This document shows, in pieces, positions 1 through 64,000 of a stretch of DNA of 64,000 nucleotides. Source of the stretch: Planctomycetota bacterium (lineage in GTDB: Bacteria; Planctomycetota; UBA1135; UBA2386); assembly GCA_965250175.1 (NCBI GenBank), contig CBDFNI010000010.1, positions 1,549,637 through 1,613,636 of the forward strand, read 5' to 3'. The position numbers were made by a program, and so were the translations under genes. The first letter of the stretch is position 1. Each line of letters starts with the position of its first letter. A model generated the notes under the pieces. The model worked only from the letters and a program-made list of their open reading frames with translations. It was not told the DNA's origin and made no database searches.

Positions 1-2954
1 GTCAGGGCAAGGCTTGCGGTCGCGCTGCTGGTTCCCGTCGCTGTTCCGGCCAACTGCACCACCGCGCCGCCGGCGAAGGTCAGGACACCAGTCGCCGATG
101 AAGTGCCGGTTGCTGTGCCAACCAGGGCGGAGTCGTTTGCCAGAACAGCAGTGGCTGAACTGATCCCGGTTGCCGTCCCAGTCATCCCCAGAATAGCCGA
201 CAGGGTGCCCGTGGCGGATGCGGTGCCCGTGGCTGTTCCCACCAGGGCGACTTCTGTGCCGATGCTCAGGGCGCCCATGGCGCTGCTGGTTCCCGTTGCG
301 GTGCCGGTTAGTGCGGAATCATTGGTCAGGGTAGCGGTGGCGCTTGATGTGCCGGCGGCGGTGCCGGTCATCAGGACCTGGACGGTCAGCGTGGCCGTGG
401 CTGAACTGGTGCCAGTGGCTGTTCCGGTCAAGGCTGAATCGTTCGTCAGGGTGGCAGTCGCTGATGATGTGCCCGCAGCCGTGCCCACCAGGTCAACCGT
501 CACCACCGAAGGCGTTGGCCCAAAAGCGAAAAGGACTTGCTTCTTGGCTCCAGGCGTTCCTGTCACCGTCCAGTCGTACTTGATGCCATTGCTGGTCAGT
601 GGCGTGGCGGACAGCCCAGCCGTCAGAATGTCGCCGGTCCCTGCAGTATCCAGCAGGTGCAAGGACTCGCTGGCGGTTGCGCGGCTCTTGCCCACCATTG
701 GGTTGGTTTTGCCGTCCTGGCTTTGGTAGCTGTAGGCTGCCTCGGTGACGCCATCGGTGACGCCGATGCTGAAGCCACCAGCATCCGTCCCGCTTTCCGT
801 GGTGTCAATGGCGCCGGCCAGGGTTCCTATTAGGCCGGCAAAGGCTGGCTGGAAACCTAGAGTTTCCTCCACGTCGGACGTGGTGCTGGTCGGGGAGTTG
901 ATGAACGACACCGTGCTGGTCGCATTGTTCAGGCGTAGGGCCAGGTAGCCGATTTCAATGCCGCCGGCGTCGTCCTTTGTTGTTGCTGTGAACCCGTTCG
1001 CGTGGGCGCTGATCTGGATTTTTTCGGTGATAGTCCCGCTTTCGTCCATGTCGGTGGCCACGCCATTGGTCGAAACTCTGACGTAGTTCTCCGCAGTAGT
1101 CCCGAAATTCTTTTCCGACCATTCGAAGCTCGCCTGGGTGTTGCTGTTACGTGACCAAACGCCGATAGAAAGTTTCGCGTGGTCCCGTTGCGTACCGTCC
1201 AGGGCTGCTTGCCGCGTGTTCCAGAAGAACACCAAGTCCGCCTGGTCGGTGGCGCCAAGCTCACAAACGACGTTCGTGGCGCTGTCCTGGGTAGCGTGAC
1301 TGGTGAAGCGGTCGCAGAAAGCCGTCAGGTCATCACCGCCAAACAGCACGGCGGTCAGCGGGTAGGTTTCGAACCCGCCGGACATACTCATGCTAACGCC
1401 ATCCGTAACCCAGTCATTCCAGTGGCCGTCCGTCAGGGATGACGAGCTGCTGGAATGCGATAACCAAATGCCGGCCAGGTCGGCGTCGTATAGCCCCACG
1501 TTCCTGGTGCTGGTGTCGCTGTTGCCCTCTTCGTTCGAAATGCTGGCGTGGCTGCTACCAGGCGGCGGGGTACCGCCCAGGCCGCGCCTTCCGTCGGTGC
1601 CGCCGATAAAGAGACTGGCATGGGCAGCTGTAGTATCCAGTGATATGGCACCACCGCCAAGGAATAGCGCGCCCTTGACTTGTCCGAATCCTGTGCTGGT
1701 GAAGTCCAAAGCACCCGATGCCGTAGGCGCTGGCAGGTTGACCACGGCCGCCTTGACGTCTGCCACCCCCTCCATGGTCATGGTGCCGACTGCGGAACTT
1801 GTGCCTGTAGCTGTTCCTGCAAGACCCAGGACCGCAGTCATGGCAGCGGTTGCAGTAGCCGTGCCCACTGCTGTGCCAACCATGTTGACGACCTTTGTCA
1901 GGGTTCCCGTCGCGCTGCTTGTTCCGGTCGCGGTGCCGGTTAGTGCGGAATCATTGGTCAGGGTAGCCGTGGCCGAGCTGGTGCCGGTGGCTGTGCCGTC
2001 CAGCAAGATGGGTTCCACCTGGATGGCAAGGGCAAAGAATTGGTTGTCTGCCTCAGCAAGCCCACCTGTAACCCAATCGAAGTCTACGCCTGTCGATGTG
2101 AATGACCATTCATCGGTGCCATTGACAGACGCAACCCGATCCTTGGACGCATAGGTGATGTCAGAATTGCCGCCCGTGTAATAGCGGGAGTAGGCACCGA
2201 CAAATTCTAGAGGGTCTGACGAGATACCATTGCCGGATGCATATTGTATGGCAGCCGACATAAACACGCGGTTCGTGCCGTCATACATGAAGTGCGAGAT
2301 GCTGCCGGCTTCCTCTTTGTCGGCAATGCTGTCTGTCGTCGCGGCTGGGTGCCACTCCGTATCCTTGATGCGGGTAAACATGCCCATCATCGCCTGCGGC
2401 TTGAACCCGAAGTTGAGGGACTTGGTGCCGGTGGTCGCCGTCTTGTCCAGCAGCAGGTTCAGCTTTACGTCGTCCAGCTTCAGCGCCAGATAGTTGGTGA
2501 CCCGACCTTCGTTGCCGCTTGGATCTACTGGGATTTGACCAGCAACAGCCCTTGGTGATGTCGCAGAAAATGACTTCCACTCAACTCCGCCCTGCGTATT
2601 TCCGCCGTTGTCCACAACCTCGCGCATTGAGTAGTTCTCGCCGCGAATGTGTGGGTCGGCTGTTGGATTGGCATCAGATTCAAACCATGAAACGCAATGC
2701 TGCTTGACTCCGTTTGTGGCGTCATTGATGCAGATGCCGTGAATGGCGCGAAACCTTGCGGGGGTTGCCCCCTGGCTACCAATCACCGTATCGCTAAGAA
2801 TCAGGTTCGGCTCAAAGCTGAGCGTGGTTACATTTAGATCTCCTGATCCGTTGTTGAGATGGTTGGCCTTTGCTTGGACTCCATCACCGGCAAATAGCAG
2901 CACGCCGATGCCATACCTTGCTGACGGATATGTATTGCTTCCACCGGTCCACGC
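1..2954 (-). CDS. Partial CDS whose C-terminal part lies beyond window position 1. It encodes a very large Thr/Gly/Ala/Ser-rich modular protein with at least two homologous modules of about 270 aa, separated by GTATGTSSATxTLTNDSAL-type repeats. Putative surface, adhesin or tail-fibre-like protein; family not recognised.
   Basis: The ORF is absent from the track because this frame has no stop inside the window; every listed minus ORF between 1 and 2954 is in one of the other two frames. Hand translation of the complement, with codons starting at 2954, 2951 and so on, gives four stop-free segments. They are AWTGGSNTYPSARYGIGVLLFAGDG (2954-2880), ITYASKDRVASVNGTDEWSFTSTGVDFDWVTGGLAEADNQFFALAIQVEPILLDGTATGT (2159-1982), SLTDGHWNDWVTDGVSMSMSGGFETYPLTAVLFGGDDLTA (1439-1322) and AAGTSSATATLTNDSALTGT (359-302). 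The track ORFs 103..729(+) and 1390..2154(+), with VPVAVP runs, are the antisense shadow of the GTATGT repeats. Not every codon was checked by hand. Confidence 0.6.
298..335. repeat. 38-nt perfect direct repeat, copy 1, inside the repeat protein gene.
   Basis: gcggtgccggttagtgcggaatcattggtcagggtagc is identical at 298..335 and 1930..1967. On the minus strand it encodes the ATLTNDSALTGTA part of the protein repeat. Confidence 0.85.
1930..1967. repeat. 38-nt perfect direct repeat, copy 2.
   Basis: Identical to 298..335, about 1.6 kb away within the same ORF. Confidence 0.85.
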
Positions 2955-4131
2955 TAGTGGTATGACGCAGAATTAGTAGGCCTTTATATTAAGCCTCCCT
3001 ACGCTTGCGGTGCGTAGGTATCGTTGGAGGCAAGACGATGCGCGTTGCAGTAGAGATTCAACTTACCAAGAGCGAGCGAAGCACCCTGACGAATTGGTCA
3101 CGCAGTCGGAGAATTTCGGTGAGGCAAGCTCAGCGAGCCCGAATGATCCTTCTTGCCGCTGATGGCTACTCGAATGCGGATATAGCTGAGGAGATGAGGG
3201 TCAAGCGACACACTGTGGGGCGTTGGCGAAACCGCTTCAGCGAGCATCGCCTCACTGGTATAGAGAAGGACCTTCCTCGGGGAGGTCGTCCCCGTGCGAA
3301 CGAGGAAGTTGAGAGTGAGATCATCCGCATGACTACGCAAGAGATCCCCGCGAACGCGACACACTGGAGCACGCGACTCCTTGCAGAGGAGATGGGAATC
3401 ACGCAGTCGATGGTCCACCGCACATGGAAGGCCAACGGTCTGAAACCTCACTTGGTGAAGACGTTCAAGGTCAGCAACGATTCTCGGTTCGAAGAGAAGC
3501 TGCGCGATGTGGTAGGTCTCTACCTGAATCCGCCCGAGAATGCACTCGTCTTTAGCGCGGACGAAAAGACGTCAATTCAGGCTCTCGATCGGACCCAGAA
3601 GAGCCTTCCACTGGTCAAGGGCCGATGCGGCACGATGACTCATGACTACAAGAGGAACGGAACAACCACCTTGTTCGCCGCGATCGAGTTGGGTCACGGC
3701 GAAGTGATCGCAACCTGCATGAAGCGACATCGACATCAGGAGTGGATCAAGTTCCTGAGAATGATCGACGAGCAAACTCCAGCTGAACTCGATCTGCACG
3801 TCATCGCCGACAACTACGCCACACACAAGCATGAGAAGGTTAAGCGGTGGCTGAAGCGCCATCCGCGATTCCACATGCACTTCATCCCGACAAGCAGCTC
3901 GTGGCTCAATATCGTGGAGGGGTTTTTCCGCAATCTTGATCAAAAACGCCTGAAGCGCGACGCGTTTCGCAGCGTCCCTCAACTCAAGAAAGCAATCATG
4001 GACTACATCGATAACCACAACGACGATCCGAAGCCGATTGTTTGGACCAAGGCCGCCGACGAGATCCTCGAAAAAGTCGGTCGCGCACGCGCTGCACTGA
4101 AAATGCCCCAACAGAGCGCATCACACCACTA
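2955..4131 (+). mobile_element. IS630-family insertion sequence, copy 1 (1177 bp counted with one flanking TA).
   Basis: It has the same length as 42877..44053 (inverted) and matches it at all but two positions. Similarity to that copy starts and stops exactly at TA dinucleotides on both sides. The imperfect terminal inverted repeats are TAGTGGTATGACGC and TAGTGGTGTGATGC. It carries one DDE transposase ORF. Confidence 0.9.
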
Positions 4132-30581: not shown

Positions 30582-32193
30582 GAGTCTGCCCCACGGGATG
30601 AGGAGGAATCCGGCCTCCGATCGCCCTCGAAATCGGGAAAAAGGTTAAGCCCCTGGCCCATCCCTGTACGTATTGAAGGCATGGCGCGCTTCAAAAAGGG
30701 TCAAGATCTCAACCAGCAGTACCTCCTACCCCCGTCAATCCGTGACTGGCTGCCTCAAGACCATCTTGCGTGGTACATCCACGACGCCGTCGAGTCGTTG
30801 GACACAGATGGACTCCTCGACCGCTACCGCATCTGCGGGAGTGGTGAATTGCCTTACGATCCACGGATGATGTTGAGGGTCTTGATCTACTCGTATTGCA
30901 CAGGGGTCTTCTCCTCCCGCAAGATCTCCAAGCACCTCGAAGAAAGCGTGCCTTTCCGGGTGTTGGCAGCTAATCAAATGCCGGACCACCGCACAATCTG
31001 TCGTTTTCGGGCGGAGCATGTCGATTTGTTCGAGAGCTTCTTTGTCCAGATCGTACAGCTCGCTTCTGAGGCTGGCTTGGTCAAGCTCGGCACCGTGGCA
31101 GTGGATGGCAGCAAAGTGAAGGCGAACGCCAGCAAGCGAAAGGCAATGAGCTACTCGCGAATGAAGTCCGAAGAGAAACGACTGCGCGGCGAGATCCGCA
31201 GAATCACCGAGATAGCCAAGGGAATCGACAAGGAAGAGGACGATCTTTTCGGTCCTGACTTTCGTGGTGACGAGTTGCCTGAAGAGCTATCAAACCGGGA
31301 GGGCCGCCTGAAGGCAATCCAGGAGGCAAAGAAGCGCTTGGAGAGACGTAAGGCCGAAGAGGACAAGCAAAAGGACGAGAAGAAGGCTCGCAAGGCCAAG
31401 GAAGAGGGGCGCGAGCTGCAGATGGCTCGCTTTCGGATACATCCCAAGGGCAAGCCACGGCCAAAGGATCAGGAAAACTTTACGGATCCAGATAGCCGGA
31501 TCATGAAGGACTCCAATGGATTCGAGCAGTGCTACAACGCTCAGATTGCTGTCGACAAAACGGAACAACTGATCATCGCCAATGGAGTCACAAACAACGC
31601 TGCGGATAATGATCAACTTCTTCCAATGGCTGAGCAAGCGATGGAGAACTCAGGTAAGCCGATAGAGCGCCTGCTTGCGGACGCGGGCTATCGCAGCGAA
31701 GAAAACTTCGAGCACCTAGAAAACGCCAAGATTGACGGTTTGGTTTCAGTGGGCAAGGAAGGAAAGGAGCGGCCGGAGACCAAACCAGATCTCCAAGCCA
31801 CTGCGCGAATGAAACGGAAACTTGGAACCAAGTACGGACGAGGCTGGTACCGACAACGCAAGCACATCGTTGAGCCGGTCTTTGGCTGGATCAAAAACGT
31901 AAGCGGCTTTCGGTCCTTCAGTATGCGAGGCATGGCAAAGGTGAGCGGTGAGTGGGATCTGATCTGTCTTGCAACCAACTTGAGAAGGCTGCACGGGAAG
32001 CTGGCGCTATGAAAGCCAAGGAAATTGGGCCATTACAGGCCAAGAAGCACTGATCTGACCCTGAAAATCGTCAACGTGGCCCCAGACCCAAAATCCATGT
32101 AGAATCCGTCAATCTGGATTTTCACAGCCCCACTAATCACTTATCCAGCTGCCACCGGGGTAGCGCTAAGTTGACTTTCCGTGGGGCAGACTC
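30582..32193 (+). mobile_element. IS1182-like (IS5 superfamily) insertion sequence, copy A (1612 bp), flanked by CTAG.
   Basis: The terminal inverted repeats are GAGTCTGCCCCACGG at 30582 and its complement ending at 32193. CTAG lies at 30578-30581 and again at 32194-32197. There is a single 443-aa transposase ORF. Confidence 0.85.
30681..32012 (+). CDS. IS1182-like DDE transposase, copy A.
   Basis: 443 aa. The N-terminal segment is LLPPSIRDWLPQDHLAWYI. The central part has AVDGSKVKANAS and a Lys/Glu-rich coiled region. The C-terminal part has LLADAGYRSEENF and EPVFGWIK. The family name is from memory. Confidence 0.85.
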   Translation: MARFKKGQDLNQQYLLPPSIRDWLPQDHLAWYIHDAVESLDTDGLLDRYRICGSGELPYDPRMMLRVLIYSYCTGVFSSRKISKHLEESVPFRVLAANQMPDHRTICRFRAEHVDLFESFFVQIVQLASEAGLVKLGTVAVDGSKVKANASKRKAMSYSRMKSEEKRLRGEIRRITEIAKGIDKEEDDLFGPDFRGDELPEELSNREGRLKAIQEAKKRLERRKAEEDKQKDEKKARKAKEEGRELQMARFRIHPKGKPRPKDQENFTDPDSRIMKDSNGFEQCYNAQIAVDKTEQLIIANGVTNNAADNDQLLPMAEQAMENSGKPIERLLADAGYRSEENFEHLENAKIDGLVSVGKEGKERPETKPDLQATARMKRKLGTKYGRGWYRQRKHIVEPVFGWIKNVSGFRSFSMRGMAKVSGEWDLICLATNLRRLHGKLAL

Positions 32194-48077: not shown

Positions 48078-50217
48078 AACATTCTCCCTCGGGCAGGACC
48101 TGGAAAGCCTCGTGATCCGGCAGCAGGGTGCGATCCACTGCGTCCTTGAAGCGCACCACCACCTGCGTACGCGAGCCCATGCCGTTGACGCGGAGCACTT
48201 CGCCGGGGCCGTAGATCTTGTGGATCACCTTGCTGCCCGGGTAGAGGGGCTGCATCTCAATGTCCGTATCCATGTCGTACTCCGACTCCTCCTCATGCAC
48301 ATCATAGGCATCCCAGGCACTGGCGCCACGGTCCACATACTCGTCGGGAATCTCCGCCAGGAAGCGGGAAGGACTCTGGGTGTTGGTCATGCCGGCAACC
48401 ATGCGCGCCCGACTATAACTCAGCAACACGGTCTTGCGGGCACGAGTCAGGGCCACATACATGAGACGACGCTCCTCCTCCAGGTCGGAAGGCTCCAGCA
48501 AGGAACGCTGGTGCGGAAAGATTCCTTCTTCCAAGCCCATGACCACCACATGATGAAACTCCAGGCCCTTGGCGGAGTGCACGGTCATCAGGGAAATGCG
48601 GGGCCCTTCGCTCTGCTGGCGATCCTCGGAAGTCATCAGACCAATGCGATGCAGGTAGGCCGCCAACCCCTCACCATTCTCCGAATCATACTGGGCCGCG
48701 TCATTCAGCAATTCGCCCACGTTCTCCAGGCGCGCCTCATCCTCCGGCTCACCCAGACCACCGGCATACTGCAGGTAATTGCTCTCCTCCAACAACACCT
48801 GCAACACATCCGCCGCCCGGCTCTGGTCGGTCACCGCTTCCAGCACCGCCGCCAGTTGCTGCACGCCCTTCTTCGCCTTGCCGCTCAAGAGACCAGGCGC
48901 AGCCGGATCTCTGACCACTTCCGAAAGGGACATCTGCTGCTGCTCCGCATGCTTGCGCAACTTCTGCACACTCACCTTGCCGATGCCCCGGGGCGGCACG
49001 TTGATGATGCGCTCCAGACTCACGTCATCCAGGGGATTCACCAACACCCGCAGGTAGGCAATGAGATCCTTGATCTCCCGGCGCTCGAAGAATGACAGGC
49101 CCCCCACAACTTTGTACGGCAGGCCCATGTGCCGCAGGGACTGCTCCAACAAACGGCTGAGGAAGTGGGCGCGATAGAACACGGCGCACTGGTCCGGATC
49201 CATGCCATCATTCAGCAGGCCCATGAGGTGGCGAGCAATGTCCTTGGACTCGGTGATGGCATCGTTGCAGCGCAGCAGCTGCAACTGGGAACCGAATTCC
49301 GCCTCGGTGAGCAGCTCCTTCTCCATGCGCTGCTGGTTGTTCTCGATCACCGCCTGAGCTGCACCCAGGATGCAGGCGGTGGAGCGGTAGTTGGTCTGCA
49401 GGCGAATGATCTGGGTGTCCGGGTAGTCATTCTCGAAGTCCAGGATGTTGCGCAGCTCGGCCCCGCGAAAGCGATAGATGGACTGGTCCGGATCGCCAAC
49501 GACGCAAATGTTGCTGGTCTCCTTACCCAAGAGACGCAGCAGTTTGTACTGGACGAGGTTGGTGTCCTGGAATTCATCCACCAGGATCCAGCGATAGCGC
49601 TGCTGGTAGATCTGGGCGATGGCCTCGTGTTCTTGCAACAGATCCACGAAGCGCAGCAGCAGGTCATCGAAGTCCATGGCACCGAGGGCCAACATGCGCT
49701 CTTCGTAGGGCCGATACAACTTGCCGACGATGGCATCCAGGCTGCTCATGCCAGAGATCATGTCGTCGGGGCGCATGCCCACATTCTTCAGGCGAGAAAT
49801 GCGGCGGCCCACGTCGGCGGGGCGGGCTGTACCCTCATCCAGGTCCAGGCTCTTCATCAGGGACTTGATGCAGGCGTTGCGGTCGTAGGTGTCGTAGATG
49901 GAGAAGTCCCGGGGGTAGCCGAGAAGGTGACCGTCTTGGCGCAGGAATCGGGCGCAGGCGGAGTGGAAGGTGGAGACATGCACGCGAAAACCGCCCTGGG
50001 CCTCGACGCGGTAAGCCATTTCCTGGGCGGCCTTGTTGGTGAAGGTGAGGGCGAGGATCTGGCTGGGCTGCACGCCTTGCTGCAGGAGGTGGGCGATGCG
50101 TCGGGTGATGACGCGGGTTTTGCCGGAGCCGGCACCGGCCAGGACCATGAGGGGCCCTTCGCCGTAGGTTACGGCTTTGCATTGGTCTTCGTTCAGCTCG
50201 GCCAGCACATCAGTCAT
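48067..50217 (-). CDS. uvrD: UvrD/PcrA/Rep-family ATP-dependent DNA helicase.
   Basis: Motifs include Walker A AGAGSGKT, TFTNKAA, TFHSACARFL, VDEFQDTN, QNYRS-like TNYRST and VALTRAR. The C-terminus has a Tudor-like tail. Length is 716 aa. Confidence 0.9.
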   Translation of the reverse strand: MTDVLAELNEDQCKAVTYGEGPLMVLAGAGSGKTRVITRRIAHLLQQGVQPSQILALTFTNKAAQEMAYRVEAQGGFRVHVSTFHSACARFLRQDGHLLGYPRDFSIYDTYDRNACIKSLMKSLDLDEGTARPADVGRRISRLKNVGMRPDDMISGMSSLDAIVGKLYRPYEERMLALGAMDFDDLLLRFVDLLQEHEAIAQIYQQRYRWILVDEFQDTNLVQYKLLRLLGKETSNICVVGDPDQSIYRFRGAELRNILDFENDYPDTQIIRLQTNYRSTACILGAAQAVIENNQQRMEKELLTEAEFGSQLQLLRCNDAITESKDIARHLMGLLNDGMDPDQCAVFYRAHFLSRLLEQSLRHMGLPYKVVGGLSFFERREIKDLIAYLRVLVNPLDDVSLERIINVPPRGIGKVSVQKLRKHAEQQQMSLSEVVRDPAAPGLLSGKAKKGVQQLAAVLEAVTDQSRAADVLQVLLEESNYLQYAGGLGEPEDEARLENVGELLNDAAQYDSENGEGLAAYLHRIGLMTSEDRQQSEGPRISLMTVHSAKGLEFHHVVVMGLEEGIFPHQRSLLEPSDLEEERRLMYVALTRARKTVLLSYSRARMVAGMTNTQSPSRFLAEIPDEYVDRGASAWDAYDVHEEESEYDMDTDIEMQPLYPGSKVIHKIYGPGEVLRVNGMGSRTQVVVRFKDAVDRTLLPDHEAFQVLPEGECFDG

Positions 50218-50275
50218 GGCCTGAGCATAGGCTGCGGGTCGGGATTACACCACCGAGAGAAAGTGGGTGTTTCGC

Positions 50276-51523
50276 TCACTTGGCTGCGCGCTGGTCTTGG
50301 GTAAAGCGCTTGATGCACTCTCGCGCCTCTTCAAGGTTTTCGTTAAGCACCTTGACGACCAACAACTGCGTGCCAGGGACATCAGTAAGCGGGTTGCAGG
50401 AGGGTAATTCTGATTCAAAGCTTCTACCCCACATCCCATGAAATACCAGAAACGTGGAGTACTTCAAACTCACCTCACCCGGTTCCCCTGCCTCCAGGAG
50501 ATCGAACACCTCCTGTAACTTGTCCAAATAACCACGACTACCTTCAATCTTGACGACGTGCCTCCATTCATTTTTTCGAACAGGGTTCACAGCTTTAGCA
50601 TCATGGTTCCCATACCTTACGCTCGATCCGGTCATCCTCCAGATGTAGAGACGAACCGAAACCCTCTTGGCAAAGCAATTGAGGCCAAATTCACGCACTT
50701 CCTTCTTTTCCCCAAGGACTCCGCAAGGAGTGGTTTTGAAATAGCCTGGGCAAAAGTACAGTTGGTGAATTTTCCTTGCTTGATCCACCATCCGCGAGAA
50801 TTTCACAGACCCTTGCCGATCGTCTAGTTCCTCGAGGCACCTCTTGGCAATCCTATGGATGGGGAGATTGTTGGTGAAGCGAGACAATCTGCCCCACTCT
50901 TGTGCCATGTAGGATTTGTTCGTCGACGCGAGAACTTCCGCACAAGCCAAATATGAATTCAGAGGGGTGAGATGAGTGTCATCTAATGAATCCCATGACA
51001 TGCCAGTTTTTCGCTCCATGAGAGCGGTCCATGAGTCATTCGGTGGCGGTGGTGGAGGCAAATAGCTGCGCTGGTCCTGCACATGAGCAAAAACACCAGC
51101 ATCCAGCCCCCTAGAATCCAGATATCCCCTGAATCCATCTTGAACCGAGGGGACGTACCCATTTCCAAAACTGGCCATATAGTTCAGAACGGCGACTCCG
51201 GAGAACTCATCTGGATAGCGTGACGCCACCCAATCCACCTTTTTCCAGTTTTCGAAATCGTACAACTCAGCAATGAATGACTCCACCATGGCGAACTTGG
51301 AGAGCTTGGCATGCGGAATGCGTTCCAGATGCACCGACCCGGCAGGAATGGCCAGGTAGTGTTTGAACTCTTCGGAGTCCAACACCGCCTGGAACCAGGC
51401 CTGGTCAATGTCTGTCAACCTTGCCGCATTCCATCCGGTGGCCCACTTCTTGTCCTGCGCGGAAACGGAACACGCAATTCCCAGCAAGAGAACCGAGGTC
51501 AGGACAAGGGATTTGCTATTCAT
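50276..51523 (-). CDS. Hypothetical secreted protein (415 aa from internal ATG 51523), low GC, family not recognised. It is in frame with the upstream metB-like gene and no stop separates them.
   Basis: MNSKSLVLTSVLLLGIACSVSAQDKKW is a canonical signal peptide located 435 codons into the 850-aa track ORF. Single 60-nt lines sampled by eye in this region give 42-57% GC, against about 60% for the flanks. Confidence 0.55.
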   Translation of the reverse strand: MNSKSLVLTSVLLLGIACSVSAQDKKWATGWNAARLTDIDQAWFQAVLDSEEFKHYLAIPAGSVHLERIPHAKLSKFAMVESFIAELYDFENWKKVDWVASRYPDEFSGVAVLNYMASFGNGYVPSVQDGFRGYLDSRGLDAGVFAHVQDQRSYLPPPPPPNDSWTALMERKTGMSWDSLDDTHLTPLNSYLACAEVLASTNKSYMAQEWGRLSRFTNNLPIHRIAKRCLEELDDRQGSVKFSRMVDQARKIHQLYFCPGYFKTTPCGVLGEKKEVREFGLNCFAKRVSVRLYIWRMTGSSVRYGNHDAKAVNPVRKNEWRHVVKIEGSRGYLDKLQEVFDLLEAGEPGEVSLKYSTFLVFHGMWGRSFESELPSCNPLTDVPGTQLLVVKVLNENLEEARECIKRFTQDQRAAK

Positions 51524-57494: not shown

Positions 57495-57510
57495 AGGTTA
57501 AGGTTTGGCC

Positions 57511-59643
57511 ATGCCATGGTTTGACCCAGCATCCTACCGAAACAGCACAATGCTGGCATTGCTTTTCGTCTTCGCCTGCCTGCTGCCCGCGCAAGAGCAG
57601 CCGCAAGAACGATCACAAGAAACAACGCCAGAGCCAAAGCAGGAGCAACGCTGGATCACTGTGCAGAACCTGGCGCCCGCGGCTCGGGAAGAATGGGCCC
57701 AGGTGGTAGTACCCTTCGCCAAGGGCCAGGTAACAGAATCTCCCGACCTGCATGTGCAGGGACTGCCCACGGTATGGCAACCCTTTGGCGCCCGCTGGGA
57801 TGACGGGTCCTGGCGCCAAGCCCTCTGCTTCTTTCCCATGGCCATGCAGGGCCTGAGCGAACGCAAGCTCCTTTTGCAAGCGGGGCCTGGCCCGGAACTG
57901 GATACGAAATTCGACAGCGACCCCAGCGCCGAACTGGACCTGCGCTTTGTGCTGCAGAATGGTCAACAGGAATTCATCGGCAAGCCCGAGCTGGTCTGCC
58001 TGCTGGAAGAAAATCCAGCACGGCAAGTGACCCTGCTGCGTTGCCGCCTGGGCGACAGCGGTCTATTGGCCGAGGTCATCCTGACTCGCTACCACAACCA
58101 GGAGATCATGCCCTTGGACATCGCTGTCTTCTTCAGTGACCCCAACAGTTCTGACATGCAGCGCGAAGTTGAACTGCTGTCCCTGCAGTGCCAGGGCATG
58201 GACCTGCAGTTCTACCACGGCCCGGCCCTGGGCATGTCCAAGCAGACCAGGGAAGATGGCATCCAGTACTCCATCCTGCAGAACGCCTCGCTGGGAGACG
58301 GACAGGGCATTCGCCGAACTGGCGTGCTGTTGCCGACGGCTGCGGATGCCGAGAATCCCGAGAGCTCTTCAGCGATTGCCGCAGCCACCTGCCCACTGTT
58401 GGCCGCCACTACTTGGAGCGACAGTCAGGCCTTCGGCCCCTTTGGCCTGGTGCCCCAAAGCCCGCCCTGGCTGCGCGGCAACCTGGGTCGGCGGGCCATG
58501 GCCAAACGGCATGCCAACTTCGCGCGCCAAAGCCAGACGACCGGTAACCCCTTCCAACATTACCCATTCAGTCTGGCCAAGTATCCGGGACAGACCGGCA
58601 ACCAGGCTGACTTTGGTTTGCTGAAGTTGAGTCCGGTAGCTCGCAGCGGCCTGCCCTCCTTCCTCTGGGAAGTAGAACTCTCGGTGCTGCAGGAAGCCTG
58701 CCGGCCGGTGCACATGTTCGAAGGCAATGGCGAACCGCTGCAAGCCAGTGATCATCCGGACTGGGTGGTGTGGAATGGTCGCACCCACTGGAACAGCAAG
58801 GTAAGCGTGGACCGCCTGGGCAAGCCCGCCCCACAACCCAAGTTCGACAGCCACGGCTGGGCCGGCAAGGACCGGCAACACTGGAGTAGCAACTACCTCT
58901 GCGCCTACTACCTGCTCACCGGCAAGCACTGGGCGCTAAGGGAAATCGAAAACGATGTGCAGCTGTTCATGGCTTGCCAGACTATCAAGGAAGGCCAGGT
59001 CACTTCCAAGTCCGGTGCGCCCAGGGCGGCCGGGCGCTGCATGCTGGCAGGTTGCTGGTACTACCTGTGCACCGGTGATGCAGACCTGCTGCAACGCATG
59101 CACCTGCGCATGCAACTTGCCCACCTGCCCTACTGGCAACATCGAGAATTGCCCACGGACAAGGTGCGCACCATGTCGGTGATGCGACCGGACCCGCGCG
59201 TTCTGAAAGGCCAACATGCCTACTGGGTGCCGTGGCAGGATGCACTGGCTTGCGTTGGCTACGCTGCTTTTTATCGCCTGAGTGGCAACCCCCTGGCGAA
59301 GGAGATGGCGGACGGCCTTTCGCTAAACGTCCTGCGCCATGGCTGGCGCATCACGCAAAAGGGCGCCCAGGTGGGTTACGCGCTGAGTTGGCTGGATGAG
59401 GGCCTAGGCCTTAGCGAGGCCGAAAAACAATTGGACGATGGCAAGCTGGCGACTTGGGCTGGCGGCGGCATCGGCATCTGGAGTCTGCCGGCGGTGGAAT
59501 GGGCCCGACAGGCCGCAGAGGCCCAAGGAATGCGGGAGTTAGCAGGAAAGGCGGCGCACATCCTGGGCTTGCTGCGGGCCAGCCGCCGACCAGGCAAGGA
59601 CGGTTGGTGGGACGACCTGAGTGAATGGGACGCCCTGCGCTAG
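57511..59643 (+). CDS. Large secreted protein of unknown function.
   Basis: ORF of about 710 aa. The hydrophobic N-terminus is MLALLFVFACLLPAQEQ. The start is ambiguous: TTG 57505, ATG 57511 or ATG 57550. No family was recognised. Confidence 0.65.
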   Translation: MPWFDPASYRNSTMLALLFVFACLLPAQEQPQERSQETTPEPKQEQRWITVQNLAPAAREEWAQVVVPFAKGQVTESPDLHVQGLPTVWQPFGARWDDGSWRQALCFFPMAMQGLSERKLLLQAGPGPELDTKFDSDPSAELDLRFVLQNGQQEFIGKPELVCLLEENPARQVTLLRCRLGDSGLLAEVILTRYHNQEIMPLDIAVFFSDPNSSDMQREVELLSLQCQGMDLQFYHGPALGMSKQTREDGIQYSILQNASLGDGQGIRRTGVLLPTAADAENPESSSAIAAATCPLLAATTWSDSQAFGPFGLVPQSPPWLRGNLGRRAMAKRHANFARQSQTTGNPFQHYPFSLAKYPGQTGNQADFGLLKLSPVARSGLPSFLWEVELSVLQEACRPVHMFEGNGEPLQASDHPDWVVWNGRTHWNSKVSVDRLGKPAPQPKFDSHGWAGKDRQHWSSNYLCAYYLLTGKHWALREIENDVQLFMACQTIKEGQVTSKSGAPRAAGRCMLAGCWYYLCTGDADLLQRMHLRMQLAHLPYWQHRELPTDKVRTMSVMRPDPRVLKGQHAYWVPWQDALACVGYAAFYRLSGNPLAKEMADGLSLNVLRHGWRITQKGAQVGYALSWLDEGLGLSEAEKQLDDGKLATWAGGGIGIWSLPAVEWARQAAEAQGMRELAGKAAHILGLLRASRRPGKDGWWDDLSEWDALR

Positions 59644-59672
59644 GCCTTGCCTAAGCCCTCCTGCCGCCACAG

Positions 59673-59713
59673 AGCAGGGGCGAAAACAGAGAAAAACCCT
59701 GCTTTCAGTTTTT
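59673..59713 (+). terminator. Possible intrinsic terminator downstream of 57511..59643.
   Basis: The stem AGCAGGG (59673-59679) pairs with CCCTGCT (59697-59703) and is followed by TTCAGTTTTT. The 17-nt loop is larger than in typical terminators. Confidence 0.3.
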
Positions 59714-59790
59714 GCCCTGGTCATAATCCCCAACGTTATCCAGTTGCTGGATAGCCGCTTACGTCTCATACCTCTGGGAGGGGGTGCAGG

Positions 59791-59919
59791 ATGGACAAGT
59801 CAATAGCCCTTGGCGCAGGCCTGGATCTGCGTCGCAAGTTGGTAGCTCTAGGCAGTGTTTGTGTCGTCTCAATTCCCTGGTGGCTGGGCCTGCTGTGGAT
59901 GTTGGGTCTGCTGGGCTGA
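59791..59919 (+). CDS. Candidate small membrane peptide (42 aa), below the track size cut-off.
   Basis: GGGAGG lies about 10 nt upstream of ATG 59791. The translation is MDKSIALGAGLDLRRKLVALGSVCVVSIPWWLGLLWMLGLLG. It has one hydrophobic C-terminal segment. Confidence 0.3.
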   Translation: MDKSIALGAGLDLRRKLVALGSVCVVSIPWWLGLLWMLGLLG

Positions 59920-59947
59920 CGGCCCGTAACCACACCCACTCAGTAAA

Positions 59948-60430
59948 TCAGCCGCCTTTCGAGTCCACAGCAGTAGCTGGTTGGCCAGGCTGGTTTTGCC
60001 CAGGCTCTTCACTCAAGTTCTTGAAGAATGGCCAGTGACTGGCTGAGAAGTAGATGCGGCGGCGAGTGAGGTCCAAGCCAAACATGCGCCAATCTTCAAG
60101 GACAGGATCGCCTCTCTTAGGCCATTCGTCCACAACCACCTCAAACCTGTCGCCATCCATGAACTGCCCATCGCCGAGCCAATAGGTGCCGTTGTATTTT
60201 GGATCGCGCCAATTGAATCTATTGTCACCTCGCAACGTAGCCAGATCCGCCTCGCTCAGGCCTAGGACCAACACCATGCCATTGAAGTGGATGACTTCTT
60301 GATGGGGAATGCTGCCAAGATCTACGGCCATCTCCTCTGTCATGAAACCGCCTGGTCCCCGATCCATATAAGGGTCACTTGGATTACAGGCCGTCAACGA
60401 CAAGGCAACAATCAGTGCAAGGTGTTTCAT
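59948..60430 (-). CDS. Lipoprotein of unknown function (low-GC island).
   Basis: MKHLALIVALSLTACNPSD has a canonical lipobox, LTAC. The protein is 160 aa. Confidence 0.65.
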   Translation of the reverse strand: MKHLALIVALSLTACNPSDPYMDRGPGGFMTEEMAVDLGSIPHQEVIHFNGMVLVLGLSEADLATLRGDNRFNWRDPKYNGTYWLGDGQFMDGDRFEVVVDEWPKRGDPVLEDWRMFGLDLTRRRIYFSASHWPFFKNLSEEPGQNQPGQPATAVDSKGG

Positions 60431-60546
60431 CTCTGGGCTCCGTCGTACAATAAAACAGGCAGCCTCAGGGACTGCCCCACCGACCCGGTTGCGGGGAGTC
60501 GTTGGCTGATTTCACCATAAAGTGCGTAGATGATCGTCGTCCCAAA

Positions 60547-63500
60547 TCATTTATCGGGTGCGCGTTCTTCGAAATCAGCCCAGAGCCAGGGGCCCTTCAA
60601 GCGGCTTCCAGTATCGTTGACATCATCCTGCACAACTTTTTGGACGTAAGCGTAGATACCCTCGCGAGATTCGATGTTCACATCGAATCGAAGGAAAATG
60701 TAGGCGGGCGTCCTCGCAAACCGATTCTTGTCAAGTTTAACGAGCACATTTGGATGGCTGATGAGAACGTCGCTGAAGAGGACATAGTACTTTGAATCCG
60801 AGACGCTCTGCACATTGCTTCTATAGAGAATGTAACTAAGAGTGGCTTCGCTGCCGACACCGCCATCGGGCGGGAGGGCTCTGATCCAAGCGCTCTCAGA
60901 AGCCTCTCTCAGCATTTTTGGCATGGGAACAAGATCGCTAAAGACCGGCATGCCCGCGCCGGCAAAGTGTAACGGAAGACCTTCTGCGAAAGGATTACCG
61001 TGCACATTGACATCAAGTGTCGCCCATATGGGGTAGTCTCGCATGGGATCGTCGGCTTTCAAATTGTCCTTGCCGATTATTGCTTTTCCGGCGGCGATTT
61101 TTTGCGACAACTCAGCAATCTCAAACTTCATTCTGCTCAATTTGAGTGTCACATCGCCTTTCCCGTGGATAAGAGTCGCCTCTTGATGTCCCTCCACCCT
61201 CGCTACGCTGTCCGACTTGAACAAGCCTACAACGGCCTTTTTCACATGAGACATAAGGTCGATTCGCGACTCATCGGTCACTGCCCCTCTTGCAAGTGAT
61301 CTGGAAATCACCGCGATAACTGGATGCGCCTTGTTTTGATGGAAGACATAGCCGCGTCTACTCAATCGTGCTTCCACCGCAATCCCAAACACCGAACCAA
61401 CCCGCCGGTCGCTCACCGTCATATCTGACTTTTTCACTCGGTAATGGAGAAACAAAACTGTCTCCGAATCGCTATCCTCGGTAATTCCTTTCAGCTTCAA
61501 GTACTGGATTATCTCGGCTTTCACCGTCGATAAACCTGCTAGGTCGAGACCCTCGGTGATGTTGCTAGTCGGATGTATGCTGACCCTTTTGAGAAGCGCC
61601 CCCCTCTGCGCCTTTGTTAGAAGGGGAGCGTCGTTGATGGCGCGCGCCCACGCCTGATTCTTCGTCTCATTCCTGGGCGACGCCCCAGCAACCGCTTTGT
61701 TCGCCAGGCCTTCTTCCGTAAAGCGTTCTCTGACCGCGCTGGCCAGCTTTTGCTTTCCCTGTGCCTCGTAAGTTTTCGCAAGCGTGTCAATCGCCGCGAT
61801 GACAGACCTGTGATACGGCTCGTGGACCTCTTCAATCATCTTGAGACGGTGCTCAAGAAGCGGCTCCGCCAGCGCGTGCATGCCCTGCGACGTGTACGCC
61901 AGAGCCAGATGGCCCAAGCTCGTCGCCACATTAGGAAACCCAGGATGCAAGCTCCTCTCGATGACTTGCAGGGACTTCTTGGCAACCGCCTCGGCGCGAA
62001 CAAAGTCCTTCGCATTGTAGAGATCCGAAAACGCACTGGTGAGGCGGCTCCATTCGATGGCGATCGCCTCTTCCTCGGCCGGCACCGGTCTCGACAGGAT
62101 CGTACTTTGGTCGGGCGCGGTGGATTCAGGCGTCTTCGGCGGACCCTTGAGCGAGATTCGCTCTCGTAACATTCGCTCGCGATTTGCGAGGGCACTGAGT
62201 TTCCGGCTTTGCCTGTGGCGTTGGTATTGTCCTCTTAGATTATCCAGGGTCGTCTTGAGGCCTTGGGTATCGGGCGTCGGAACCGACTCCCAAATTTCCA
62301 GAGCGCGAAGGTACAACGGCACGCCGAACCGGCCTTCGAGGATGTAGACCGCGGCGAGCATGTTCAGGCTCAGCGCTACGTTGGAATGATACGGACCGTA
62401 GGTGAGCTCGGCGAAGGCAACCGCCGCCCTGGCCTCAGCACCCGCCAGCTCATACTCACGCGCATCAATATGTTTCCTGATCCTGGGTTCAAAGGCTTCC
62501 CACCTATCGGGGATGGCTTCAACCTTCGATGCACCTGGTTTTTCTGCGCTTTCCGGTTGTGCCGCGCGTGACCCCTGCAAGAGCGAATCAGCCAACTCGA
62601 TTGAATCAGGGAGAGCTTTCGGCGTCTTGTCCACGGGCCGGGCTTTCGGCGCGGCGACCTTCGCAAGTTCGTACAGGGGTTTGGCCAAATGGCTCTCGTC
62701 CTGGGCCACACGCAGGGCCGCAAGATCCCTAAGCGTTTGCGCATAGAGTGGATGCTCATCATCCATCAACTTCAGCGCGCCTTTGTATAGCGGCAAGGCG
62801 AAGGCGTAATTGCGATTCATCGCGAGAACCCGCGCTTGAACGGTCAGGTTTGTGATCGCATCCGGAGAGGCGTGCGCCCATCGACCTTCTGCTTCACGCC
62901 GAGACTTTCGGATATCCTCACTCAAAGGCGGCATAGGATTCCGGGCATGGTTTACCTCCCACATCTTCTCTTCGATCTGATAGTGATGCGCGCGATGGTC
63001 ATGTAGATCGTAGAGATTCTGCTGGGTGACCATGACCAGGAGTTTTTTTCCAAAGTGCGAATCCTTCGGACCTATGGTCGCCGCAAATATTTCCAGGGCT
63101 TCTTTATAGAGTCGCTTTGGTCTGTCGAATTCCCCCTGGGCGGCGTAGCCCCTGGCCAATTGGTACAGGCTCTCACCGACCAGCCGATGCGGTTGCTCGA
63201 GCAACTTTCGGCGCGTTTCCAGCGCCATCTTGTTGAGTTGCTCGGCGTAGGCGAATTGCCCCCGTCCGTGGTACCTTCTCCACGCGAGATCGTGCATGAC
63301 TACCGCAACATGGAGGTTCTCGATGGCCTTGTAACCCGCGGTCGCTCTCCGGAGTCTAAGGTCGAAAGGCTCGGCATTTTCCTCACCGAGTATCCGCGTG
63401 TTTTCGTCGATGACGGCCAACTTCGTCAGGTCCGGGCGGTCGGCTTGGGGGATCAGCTCCCGTTCCTTCATCGTACGCCGGTTCAGCTCGTCGACTCTCC

Positions 63501-64000
63501 TGCGAAATCCGGTAATGCTGTACAGCCTCGCCAGGTTGTCCATGGTTATGACGATGTCGGCGTGGTCGGGCTCCGGTGTCTTCTGCCAAATCTTCAGCGC
63601 GCGATCGTACAGCTCCTTCGCGTCGGCGTACCGGCCCTTGTGCTGGTATATGTAGCCGAGGTTGTTCAGGCTCCGGGCGGTGTTCGGATGGTTGCGTCCA
63701 AATTCTCCTTTGGCGGCGGCAAGGGCCTTCTCAGCAAGCTCCGTACTTCGTTGAAAGTCATGGACACGTTGGCACTGCATAAGCGCCACGTTGATGCCGT
63801 CCCAGCTGCCGGCAGCGTATTTAACCTTAGAAACCTGCGGACCTGGCACAGGGGTCACTTTGGCTTCGACTTTCGGGCGCCCTCGAGGCACTTTGGCTTT
63901 GACCACCGTGGGCGTTGGGGTCACTGGGCTCACTGGGGTCACTGGGGTTTTGTCGGGCTTTGGCCTCTTTTCCCATATCTCCCTGGCGCGCGTCGGCAGC
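60547..64000 (-). CDS. Very large TPR-repeat protein with an unrecognised C-terminal domain of about 430 aa. The N-terminus probably lies beyond the window end.
   Basis: The track ORF starts at GTG 63942, but the frame stays open to position 64000; hand translation upstream gives ...LPTRAREIWEKRPKPDKTP-VTPVSPVTPTPT. Multiple TPR units occur, e.g. ARSLNNLGYIYQHKGRYADAKELYDRALKIWQK and ALSLNMLAAVYILEGRF. The last ~430 aa (from ...HPTSNITEGLDLAG to ...WADFEERAPDK) show no motif I recognise. Confidence 0.7.
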   Translation of the reverse strand, partial: LPTRAREIWEKRPKPDKTPVTPVSPVTPTPTVVKAKVPRGRPKVEAKVTPVPGPQVSKVKYAAGSWDGINVALMQCQRVHDFQRSTELAEKALAAAKGEFGRNHPNTARSLNNLGYIYQHKGRYADAKELYDRALKIWQKTPEPDHADIVITMDNLARLYSITGFRRRVDELNRRTMKERELIPQADRPDLTKLAVIDENTRILGEENAEPFDLRLRRATAGYKAIENLHVAVVMHDLAWRRYHGRGQFAYAEQLNKMALETRRKLLEQPHRLVGESLYQLARGYAAQGEFDRPKRLYKEALEIFAATIGPKDSHFGKKLLVMVTQQNLYDLHDHRAHHYQIEEKMWEVNHARNPMPPLSEDIRKSRREAEGRWAHASPDAITNLTVQARVLAMNRNYAFALPLYKGALKLMDDEHPLYAQTLRDLAALRVAQDESHLAKPLYELAKVAAPKARPVDKTPKALPDSIELADSLLQGSRAAQPESAEKPGASKVEAIPDRWEAFEPRIRKHIDAREYELAGAEARAAVAFAELTYGPYHSNVALSLNMLAAVYILEGRFGVPLYLRALEIWESVPTPDTQGLKTTLDNLRGQYQRHRQSRKLSALANRERMLRERISLKGPPKTPESTAPDQSTILSRPVPAEEEAIAIEWSRLTSAFSDLYNAKDFVRAEAVAKKSLQVIERSLHPGFPNVATSLGHLALAYTSQGMHALAEPLLEHRLKMIEEVHEPYHRSVIAAIDTLAKTYEAQGKQKLASAVRERFTEEGLANKAVAGASPRNETKNQAWARAINDAPLLTKAQRGALLKRVSIHPTSNITEGLDLAGLSTVKAEIIQYLKLKGITEDSDSETVLFLHYRVKKSDMTVSDRRVGSVFGIAVEARLSRRGYVFHQNKAHPVIAVISRSLARGAVTDESRIDLMSHVKKAVVGLFKSDSVARVEGHQEATLIHGKGDVTLKLSRMKFEIAELSQKIAAGKAIIGKDNLKADDPMRDYPIWATLDVNVHGNPFAEGLPLHFAGAGMPVFSDLVPMPKMLREASESAWIRALPPDGGVGSEATLSYILYRSNVQSVSDSKYYVLFSDVLISHPNVLVKLDKNRFARTPAYIFLRFDVNIESREGIYAYVQKVVQDDVNDTGSRLKGPWLWADFEERAPDK

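Follow-up and report, generated by a model that had tools for sequence, protein, structure and literature searches.

We analysed a 64,000-nucleotide stretch from the genome of a Planctomycetota bacterium (the window; G000:C10:1549637-1613636, within a 5.1-Mb assembly of 10 contigs), whose right-hand end carries a gene for a large tetratricopeptide repeat (TPR) protein. Judged by sequence, the C-terminal domain of this protein is a new, very rare family. The open reading frame (ORF), which an earlier note on this DNA had correctly followed for more than 1150 residues off the window end, is completed in the assembly and encodes 1304 residues. The gene and its parts are as follows, in window coordinates.

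60547-64461, minus strand: the complete 1304-residue ORF, running past the window end.
61672-64000, minus strand: the TPR part of the gene within the window; the gene goes on to 64461, and beyond the window it encodes the signal peptide and the greater part of TPR block 1.
63817-63969, minus strand: a linker rich in Pro, Thr, Val and Lys, by composition.
~63466-63771, 63052-63273, 62665-62838, 62326-62460 and 61723-61989, minus strand: TPR_12-type blocks inside the window, from Pfam searches with fragments.
60550-61671, minus strand: the C-terminal domain (residues 931-1304, 374 residues), a rare uncatalogued family by sequence.
~61198-61614, minus strand: first half of the C-terminal domain, modelled as a β-α-β3-α sandwich.
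~60550-61089, minus strand: second half of the C-terminal domain, carrying the invariant residues of the family in a five-sequence alignment.

The N-terminus of the protein is closely bounded. An upstream stop lies only eight codons before Met1, a AAAGGAAG run sits just 5' of the ATG, and TPR block 1 (E 5.1e-26) precedes any later possible start. The sole hydrophobic segment of the protein spans residues 3-23 and ends in V-F-A before a Gln; by inspection, it is most likely a cleavable Sec signal peptide. The Pro/Thr/Val/Lys-rich stretch that had been taken for the N-terminus is in fact an internal linker at residues 165-215, and the real N-terminus is this predicted signal peptide.

Pfam searches with 1150-residue and fragment queries revealed TPR families only, with E-values of 9.1e-48 for TPR_12, 7.8e-37 for TPR_NPHP3 and 1.6e-26 for TPR_10, and with bit scores well over the curated cut-offs for TPR_12 (PF13424, 160.8 vs 30.1) and TPR_10 (PF13374, 91.9 vs 27.5). 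The precomputed Pfam list for the full 1304-residue protein also holds TPR only, and no nucleoside triphosphatase (NTPase), nuclease, protease or other effector domain was found in Pfam. Searches with six fragments resolved six TPR blocks, at residues ~41-168, 231-332, 397-470, 542-599, 668-712 and 825-913, which are separated by linkers of 60-110 residues. In a secondary alignment to P0004, the closest full relative described below, residues 1-326 (26% identity) show the same succession of block, proline linker and block as residues 648-930, and we take the six blocks to be a two-block unit present three times. In PADLOC-DB 2.0, the protein matches only the generic model PDLC01169 'TPR', with an E-value of 1.4e-4.

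The C-terminal module is shorter than the 430 residues first assigned to it: it comprises about 374 residues (931-1304), and the start then quoted for it, ITEGLDLAGL, is residue 968, which leaves 337. The statement that it has no nameable family holds. Pfam, NCBIfam, PHROGs and PADLOC all lack a match to it, and a profile search of PDB sequences gave a single match at chance level (E 0.052). An exhaustive HMMER search of 1,835,955,588 representative proteins revealed five relatives, four of them at E < 1e-10, to which a word-indexed collection of 5.8 billion added no more.

Among these relatives, P0004 (534 residues) has a signal sequence ending in A-F-A before a Gln, followed by two TPR blocks and then the domain. 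Its alignment to residues 648-1113 is collinear, with 50% identity spread uniformly over the TPR part and the domain. The similarity of P0004 to the family stops exactly where P0005 starts, and both could derive from a single homologue split by a frameshift or a misassembly. P0003 and P0006 are fragmentary, the latter (80% identical) ending in unrelated residues. Of the five members, three are fragments or frameshifted. P0007 (651 residues, 34% identity) presents a different architecture, in which a GYF_2 domain (E 3.6e-6), one membrane helix and a disordered linker precede the domain. Since the domain follows a signal peptide in P0004 and a membrane helix in P0007, we place it outside the cytoplasm. 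Its second half contains ten positions that are invariant in five sequences, including a Tyr, a Ser and a Ser-His-x-Asn run, and the chains of the relatives stop a few residues past a conserved W-L-W. An internal duplication of the domain was considered and rejected, as hhalign gave a probability of 0.2% for the first half against the second.

Searches by other means yielded no confirmed member of the family. The best language-model look-alikes score 0.82 for the domain and 0.88 for the neighbouring lipoprotein, and all of them are unnamed clusters below the lead level of 0.9. Patterns derived from the alignment of the domain matched 39 times in genome contigs and 88 times in metagenome contigs, with no confirmed relative among the matches. 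A degenerate DNA pattern for the conserved motif F-[AV]-R-[TM]-P-A-[YF]-[IV]-F-L found 40 + 22 loci, none of which (0/62) matches the family by tblastn.

Nor was the domain found in other genomes of the phylum. Searched with the protein, none of 400 other genomes of the phylum has it (0/400, with no genome of the same genus among them); searched with a profile, the count is again 0/400, and two weak matches are confined to profile positions 2-60, which are not part of the domain. The TPR part found only short generic TPR matches in 20 relatives, the best at E 6e-15.

The TPR gene lies in a slot of 7.7 kb between a gene for a 712-residue protein and tRNA-Arg(ACG), the 3' end of the tRNA pointing towards the slot. 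The window end was extended into the assembly as locus L001, of which 20 kb were read. On the minus strand, the slot runs from the lipoprotein gene through a hairpin, the TPR gene, an integrase-like remnant, an insertion sequence (IS) element of the IS3 family and a DUF6188 gene to tRNA-Arg(ACG); past the tRNA, an aminotransferase IV gene is followed by other housekeeping-type ORFs. The further features of the slot and its flank are listed below.

57505-59643, plus strand: gene of the 712-residue protein, which is hydrophobic in an N-terminal segment and matches no family in Pfam, NCBIfam or PADLOC.
~59678-59717, plus strand: hairpin with a T-run after the 712-residue gene (stop at 59643); -21.5 kcal/mol, z -1.95.
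59791-59919, plus strand: candidate micro-ORF of 42 residues, with a GGGAGGGGG run resembling a Shine-Dalgarno sequence 6-7 nucleotides before the ATG.
59948-60430, minus strand: predicted lipoprotein of 160 residues, with a signal sequence and the lipobox-type motif L-T-A-C, by inspection.
60457-60477, minus strand: terminator-like hairpin, rich in G+C and with a T-run, located past the stop of the TPR gene and ahead of the lipoprotein start, from a consensus scan.
L001 6788-8545 (64788-66545 on the window scale): IS3-family element of 1758 bp, with orfA (HTH_Tnp_1) and orfB (rve).
L001 8810-9166, minus strand: DUF6188 gene (E 3.3e-9), with the lowest G+C content (GC, 0.487) and the lowest GC at third codon positions (GC3, 0.487) of the slot.
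L001 9387-9463: tRNA-Arg(ACG), single-copy in the genome.

The IS3 element is bounded by imperfect terminal inverted repeats and flanked by a target duplication of 4 bp, CTTC. Aligned to the genome, the element yields 35 rows of 99.9-100% identity on contigs C4-C10, corresponding to about 32 copies, which points to a recent IS expansion in this genome; apart from the element, the slot is unique in the genome. Removal of the element in silico restored no long frame, and an apparent second copy of the integrase remnant on contig C9, found by tblastn, proved to be only the shared IS end. A literature search found no paper mentioning DUF6188. Scanned with PADLOC, the five other proteins of the locus match no family, and neither they nor the TPR protein match a system-specific model. 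The 712-residue protein has orthologues in 12/12 genomes of the same family at ~47-52% identity, and most genomes have one to three more distant paralogues. It represents a conserved uncharacterised family.

The corresponding loci of five relatives were read. One of them, G406, conserves the whole gene order, with thiolase, cyclophilins, enoyl-CoA hydratase, a pabB-like gene, aminotransferase IV, a 213-residue gene, tRNA-Arg(ACG), an interval of 1.75 kb and the 712-residue gene, and the cargo of the slot is an unrelated secreted protein of 449 residues rich in Cys and Gly (L017 10657-12006). In G138, the tRNA lies 5.8 kb away with unrelated genes between (L013 3749-9542), including ORFs of 246, 208 and 338 residues, and the other three loci have no tRNA-Arg within the 16 kb that were read. 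As the loci hold different inserts or no tRNA-Arg, the slot is variable between genera. The neighbourhood of tRNA-Arg(ACG) looks like a recurrent insertion site in the family.

The lipoprotein gene, present as first reported, lies 116 nucleotides downstream of the TPR gene on the same strand. Its product has no Pfam, NCBIfam or PADLOC family; of 34 candidates from 5.8 billion clusters, only the protein itself was recovered. Among 100 other genomes of the order, none gave a match better than E 0.005 (0/100), with chance-level values at 0.005-0.007. On these searches, the predicted lipoprotein is an ORFan.

The micro-ORF, which had been put forward as a membrane peptide with a good Shine-Dalgarno sequence, does have the ORF and the GGGAGGGGG run. 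Its coding status is another matter: it scores -0.122 per codon, compared to +0.354 (standard deviation 0.131) for 582 long ORFs of the genome, and has no Pfam match, so that it is probably not a gene. The hairpin reported after the upstream gene is present, and 6/200 shuffles fold as well; it probably acts as a terminator and marks the left-hand limit of the variable slot. The second hairpin, at 60457-60477, is not distinguished from shuffles (-12.6 kcal/mol, z -0.98). Among the five sequencing runs found, no RNA run contains the stretch, which is complete in four runs from one sample.

The GC had been described as low from the hairpin to the window end and taken as a sign of acquired DNA. 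With a genome mean of 0.579, the region 59650-64000 has a GC of 0.560 (z -0.73), and 21% of same-size genome windows are as low or lower. Its tetranucleotide distance is borderline (z 1.88; 5.8% of 400 random windows as deviant). For the whole region, the GC dip is not significant. What stands of the claim is the segment 59948-61671, which covers the C-terminal domain and the lipoprotein gene at a GC of 0.525 (z -1.78; 4.5% of same-size genome windows as low). The 1-kb windows from 60001 have a GC of 0.529, 0.541, 0.583 and 0.585, so that the GC is back at genome level near 61,600 and is not low to the window end. The lowest 500-nucleotide window of the region reaches 0.498, and equally low 1-kb windows occur elsewhere in the window (0.540 at 2001-3000, 0.542 at 31001-32000 and 0.535 at 50001-51000). 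By part, the GC is 0.516 in the C-terminal domain, 0.536 in the lipoprotein gene and 0.581 in the TPR part, and the GC3 is 0.586, 0.596 and 0.678, respectively, compared to 0.696 (standard deviation 0.069) in the long ORFs of the genome. The call of a low-GC island is therefore weak, resting on 1.7 kb only.

The codon score per codon is 0.293 and 0.259 for the flanking 712- and 213-residue genes, 0.186 for the TPR gene (best other frame -0.066), 0.147 for the C-terminal domain taken alone, 0.110 for the lipoprotein gene (best in its own frame, vs -0.119), 0.035 for the DUF6188 gene and about 0 for the IS genes. Because the slot is IS-bearing and poorly codon-adapted, and holds genes that were not found in the relatives searched, a foreign origin is better backed by gene content than by GC. 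The locus appears to be specific to the lineage or acquired. The idea of acquired DNA thus survives through context and codon usage, not through the GC dip.

Altogether, we propose as the most likely reading that the TPR gene encodes a Sec-exported periplasmic or envelope scaffold or adaptor of the beads-on-a-string type, docked to the envelope by its terminal domain, and that the gene is lineage-specific and probably horizontally acquired; we put the chances of this reading at about even. What we observe directly is the architecture of the protein, the rarity of its domain, the conserved signal peptide, the genomic context and the lack of a recognised defence or effector domain. On this proposal, the gene would have been gained horizontally into the variable slot between the family-conserved gene and tRNA-Arg(ACG), the Sec pathway would export the 1304-residue product with cleavage of its signal peptide, the C-terminal domain would bind some component of the envelope, and partner proteins may be recruited by the TPR beads. 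The genome has two Omp85-family genes, which indicates that the cell is diderm; LptD was not found in a search of the genome. The slot resembles tRNA-linked islands in its position at the 3' side of a single-copy tRNA, its variable content, its atypical codons and its mobile element, but differs in having no intact integrase and no significant deviation in GC.

Structure models of the C-terminal domain provide a lead on the fold of its first half. The AlphaFold2 model built on a 6-row alignment has a mean predicted local distance difference test score (pLDDT) of 46.7, the better part (blocks of 50-79) being model residues 1-190. Searched with Foldseek, this first half matches LptE, PelC, TraT, HpaA and CsgG at E-values of 7e-5 to 3e-3 and template modelling scores of 0.35-0.52. 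VIA-align likewise gave LptE (Z 9.1), CsgG (Z 9.0, with a root mean square deviation (RMSD) of 3.7 over 121 residues) and PelC (Z 8.6); its matches to this group of lipoproteins have Z-scores of 8.0-9.1, RMSD of 3.3-4.4 for most and 108-127 aligned residues within model residues ~20-158. By the tool's own guidance, best Z-scores of 7-8 are typical for models without a true match, and values under 8 often arise by chance. In a low-confidence model, the first half of the domain thus resembles the β-α-β3-α sandwich of the outer-membrane lipoproteins LptE, CsgG, PelC, TraT and PqiC. Unlike these, the domain is internal to a 1304-residue protein and has neither a lipobox nor a sequence-family match. 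No paper tying the LptE-like fold to tetratricopeptide proteins was found in a literature search.

Several points weigh against the proposed scaffold. The typical Z-scores just given already temper the fold matches, and the sandwich also matches ribosome hibernation factors at Z 7.4-7.8 in VIA-align; at this low model confidence, the LptE/CsgG/PelC-type sandwich is a weak lead, not an assignment. The second half, the better conserved of the two, was modelled alone by AlphaFold2 on a 5-row alignment; it has a mean pLDDT of 37.1 and gives no usable model, and the Tyr, Ser and Ser-His-x-Asn that are invariant in it could belong to an active site instead of a docking surface. Export itself is predicted from the sequence, and the 20-kb locus has no partner, operon or pathway genes near the TPR gene. 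As for acquisition, the compositional case is modest; the 139-residue integrase-like remnant has only weak matches (phrog_1 at E 0.02, XerS at E 0.084) and none in Pfam, and no attachment-site direct repeat or repeat of the tRNA end was found. In addition, the nearest relatives compared share only ~50% amino acid identity in orthologues and none is of the same genus, so that absence from them cannot date the gain.

The known proteins closest in layout are BcsC, PelB and PgaA, the periplasmic TPR scaffold-porins of polysaccharide export. The present protein shares with them a Sec signal peptide, a long TPR array, a non-TPR C-terminal module (here of ~370 residues) in the same order of parts, and a diderm cell. 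It might accordingly be a protein of this type, with a periplasmic TPR array and a C-terminal outer-membrane channel or ring module, and the resemblance of the first half of the module to PelC and CsgG, which form outer-membrane-associated rings, would fit, low as the confidence of the model is. So would the long β hairpins in both AlphaFold2 models and the end of the relatives' chains shortly after the conserved W-L-W. However, the module has no porin or barrel family match in Pfam and is not modelled as a barrel, albeit in low-confidence models, the domain of P0007 is tethered to an inner-membrane helix, and the 20 kb read contain no glycosyltransferase, polysaccharide synthase or modification genes. 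The repeats also differ, as six short TPR_12 blocks on linkers replace one continuous superhelix. We consider a protein of the BcsC type unlikely, if still the most plausible of the alternatives. The fall in GC and GC3 spans exactly the C-terminal domain and the lipoprotein gene, two adjacent orphans on the same strand, and this, together with the invariant polar residues of the second half, could suggest an exported effector with its immunity protein in a polymorphic-toxin layout, in which the domain would be an envelope-acting enzyme or toxin from which the ORFan lipoprotein protects the producer. Against such a pair, no cassette boundary shows in P0004, where TPR part and domain are conserved jointly at a uniform 50%, a terminator-like hairpin separates the two genes, and none of Pfam, NCBIfam, PHROGs and PADLOC returns a toxin, delivery or immunity family; the GYF_2 protein that also carries the domain is anchored in the membrane, an arrangement unlike those used for delivery. 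Prediction of a complex between the domain and the mature lipoprotein (score 0.00, mark 0.32) gives no evidence either way. We regard this pairing as improbable. We hold equally small expectations for a bolder version, in which the domain would found a new envelope-acting family, with an enzymatic second half on a flexible periplasmic TPR stalk and the lipoprotein as its cognate protector, in an exported conflict or envelope-remodelling cassette.

The earlier note had raised a sensor-effector or conflict system as a candidate, which we considered as an intracellular TPR sensor fused to an unknown effector. Arrays of TPR_10 and TPR_12 are common in sensors of the STAND (signal transduction ATPases with numerous domains) type, the terminal module has no known family, and the locus sits in a variable, IS-bearing slot by a tRNA. 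Yet the likeness to STAND sensors and other TPR_10/TPR_12 proteins of the kinesin-light-chain or nephrocystin-3 type ends with the repeat type: the protein has no NB-ARC, NACHT or AAA domain, and its repeats are split by long linkers. Because it begins with a predicted Sec-type signal peptide, conserved in P0004, has no NTPase or known effector domain, and finds in PADLOC only the generic TPR model, with no match among its neighbours (the ORFan lipoprotein, the IS and the DUF6188 gene), we consider an intracellular sensor-effector very improbable, and did not retain that interpretation. Finally, the gene may have no current function and be imported DNA drifting in an IS-rich region, in line with the poor codon adaptation throughout the slot, the IS copy and possible integrase remnant directly upstream, and an extremely sparse family in which three of five members are fragments or frameshifted. 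The frame is nevertheless intact over 1304 codons and clearly outscores the other frames in codon usage; moreover, the 46-50% identity with relatives across the whole domain indicates past purifying selection. A drifting gene is thus a poor prospect, on a par with the toxin-immunity pair.

Returning to the exported envelope scaffold, such TPR proteins are common, and the architecture taken alone is therefore ordinary. The whole protein is a variant of exported TPR proteins, and its novelty lies in the C-terminal domain. We would not list the locus among candidate defence systems; if the structure of the domain and its partner were found, one small family would be added to the envelope modules.

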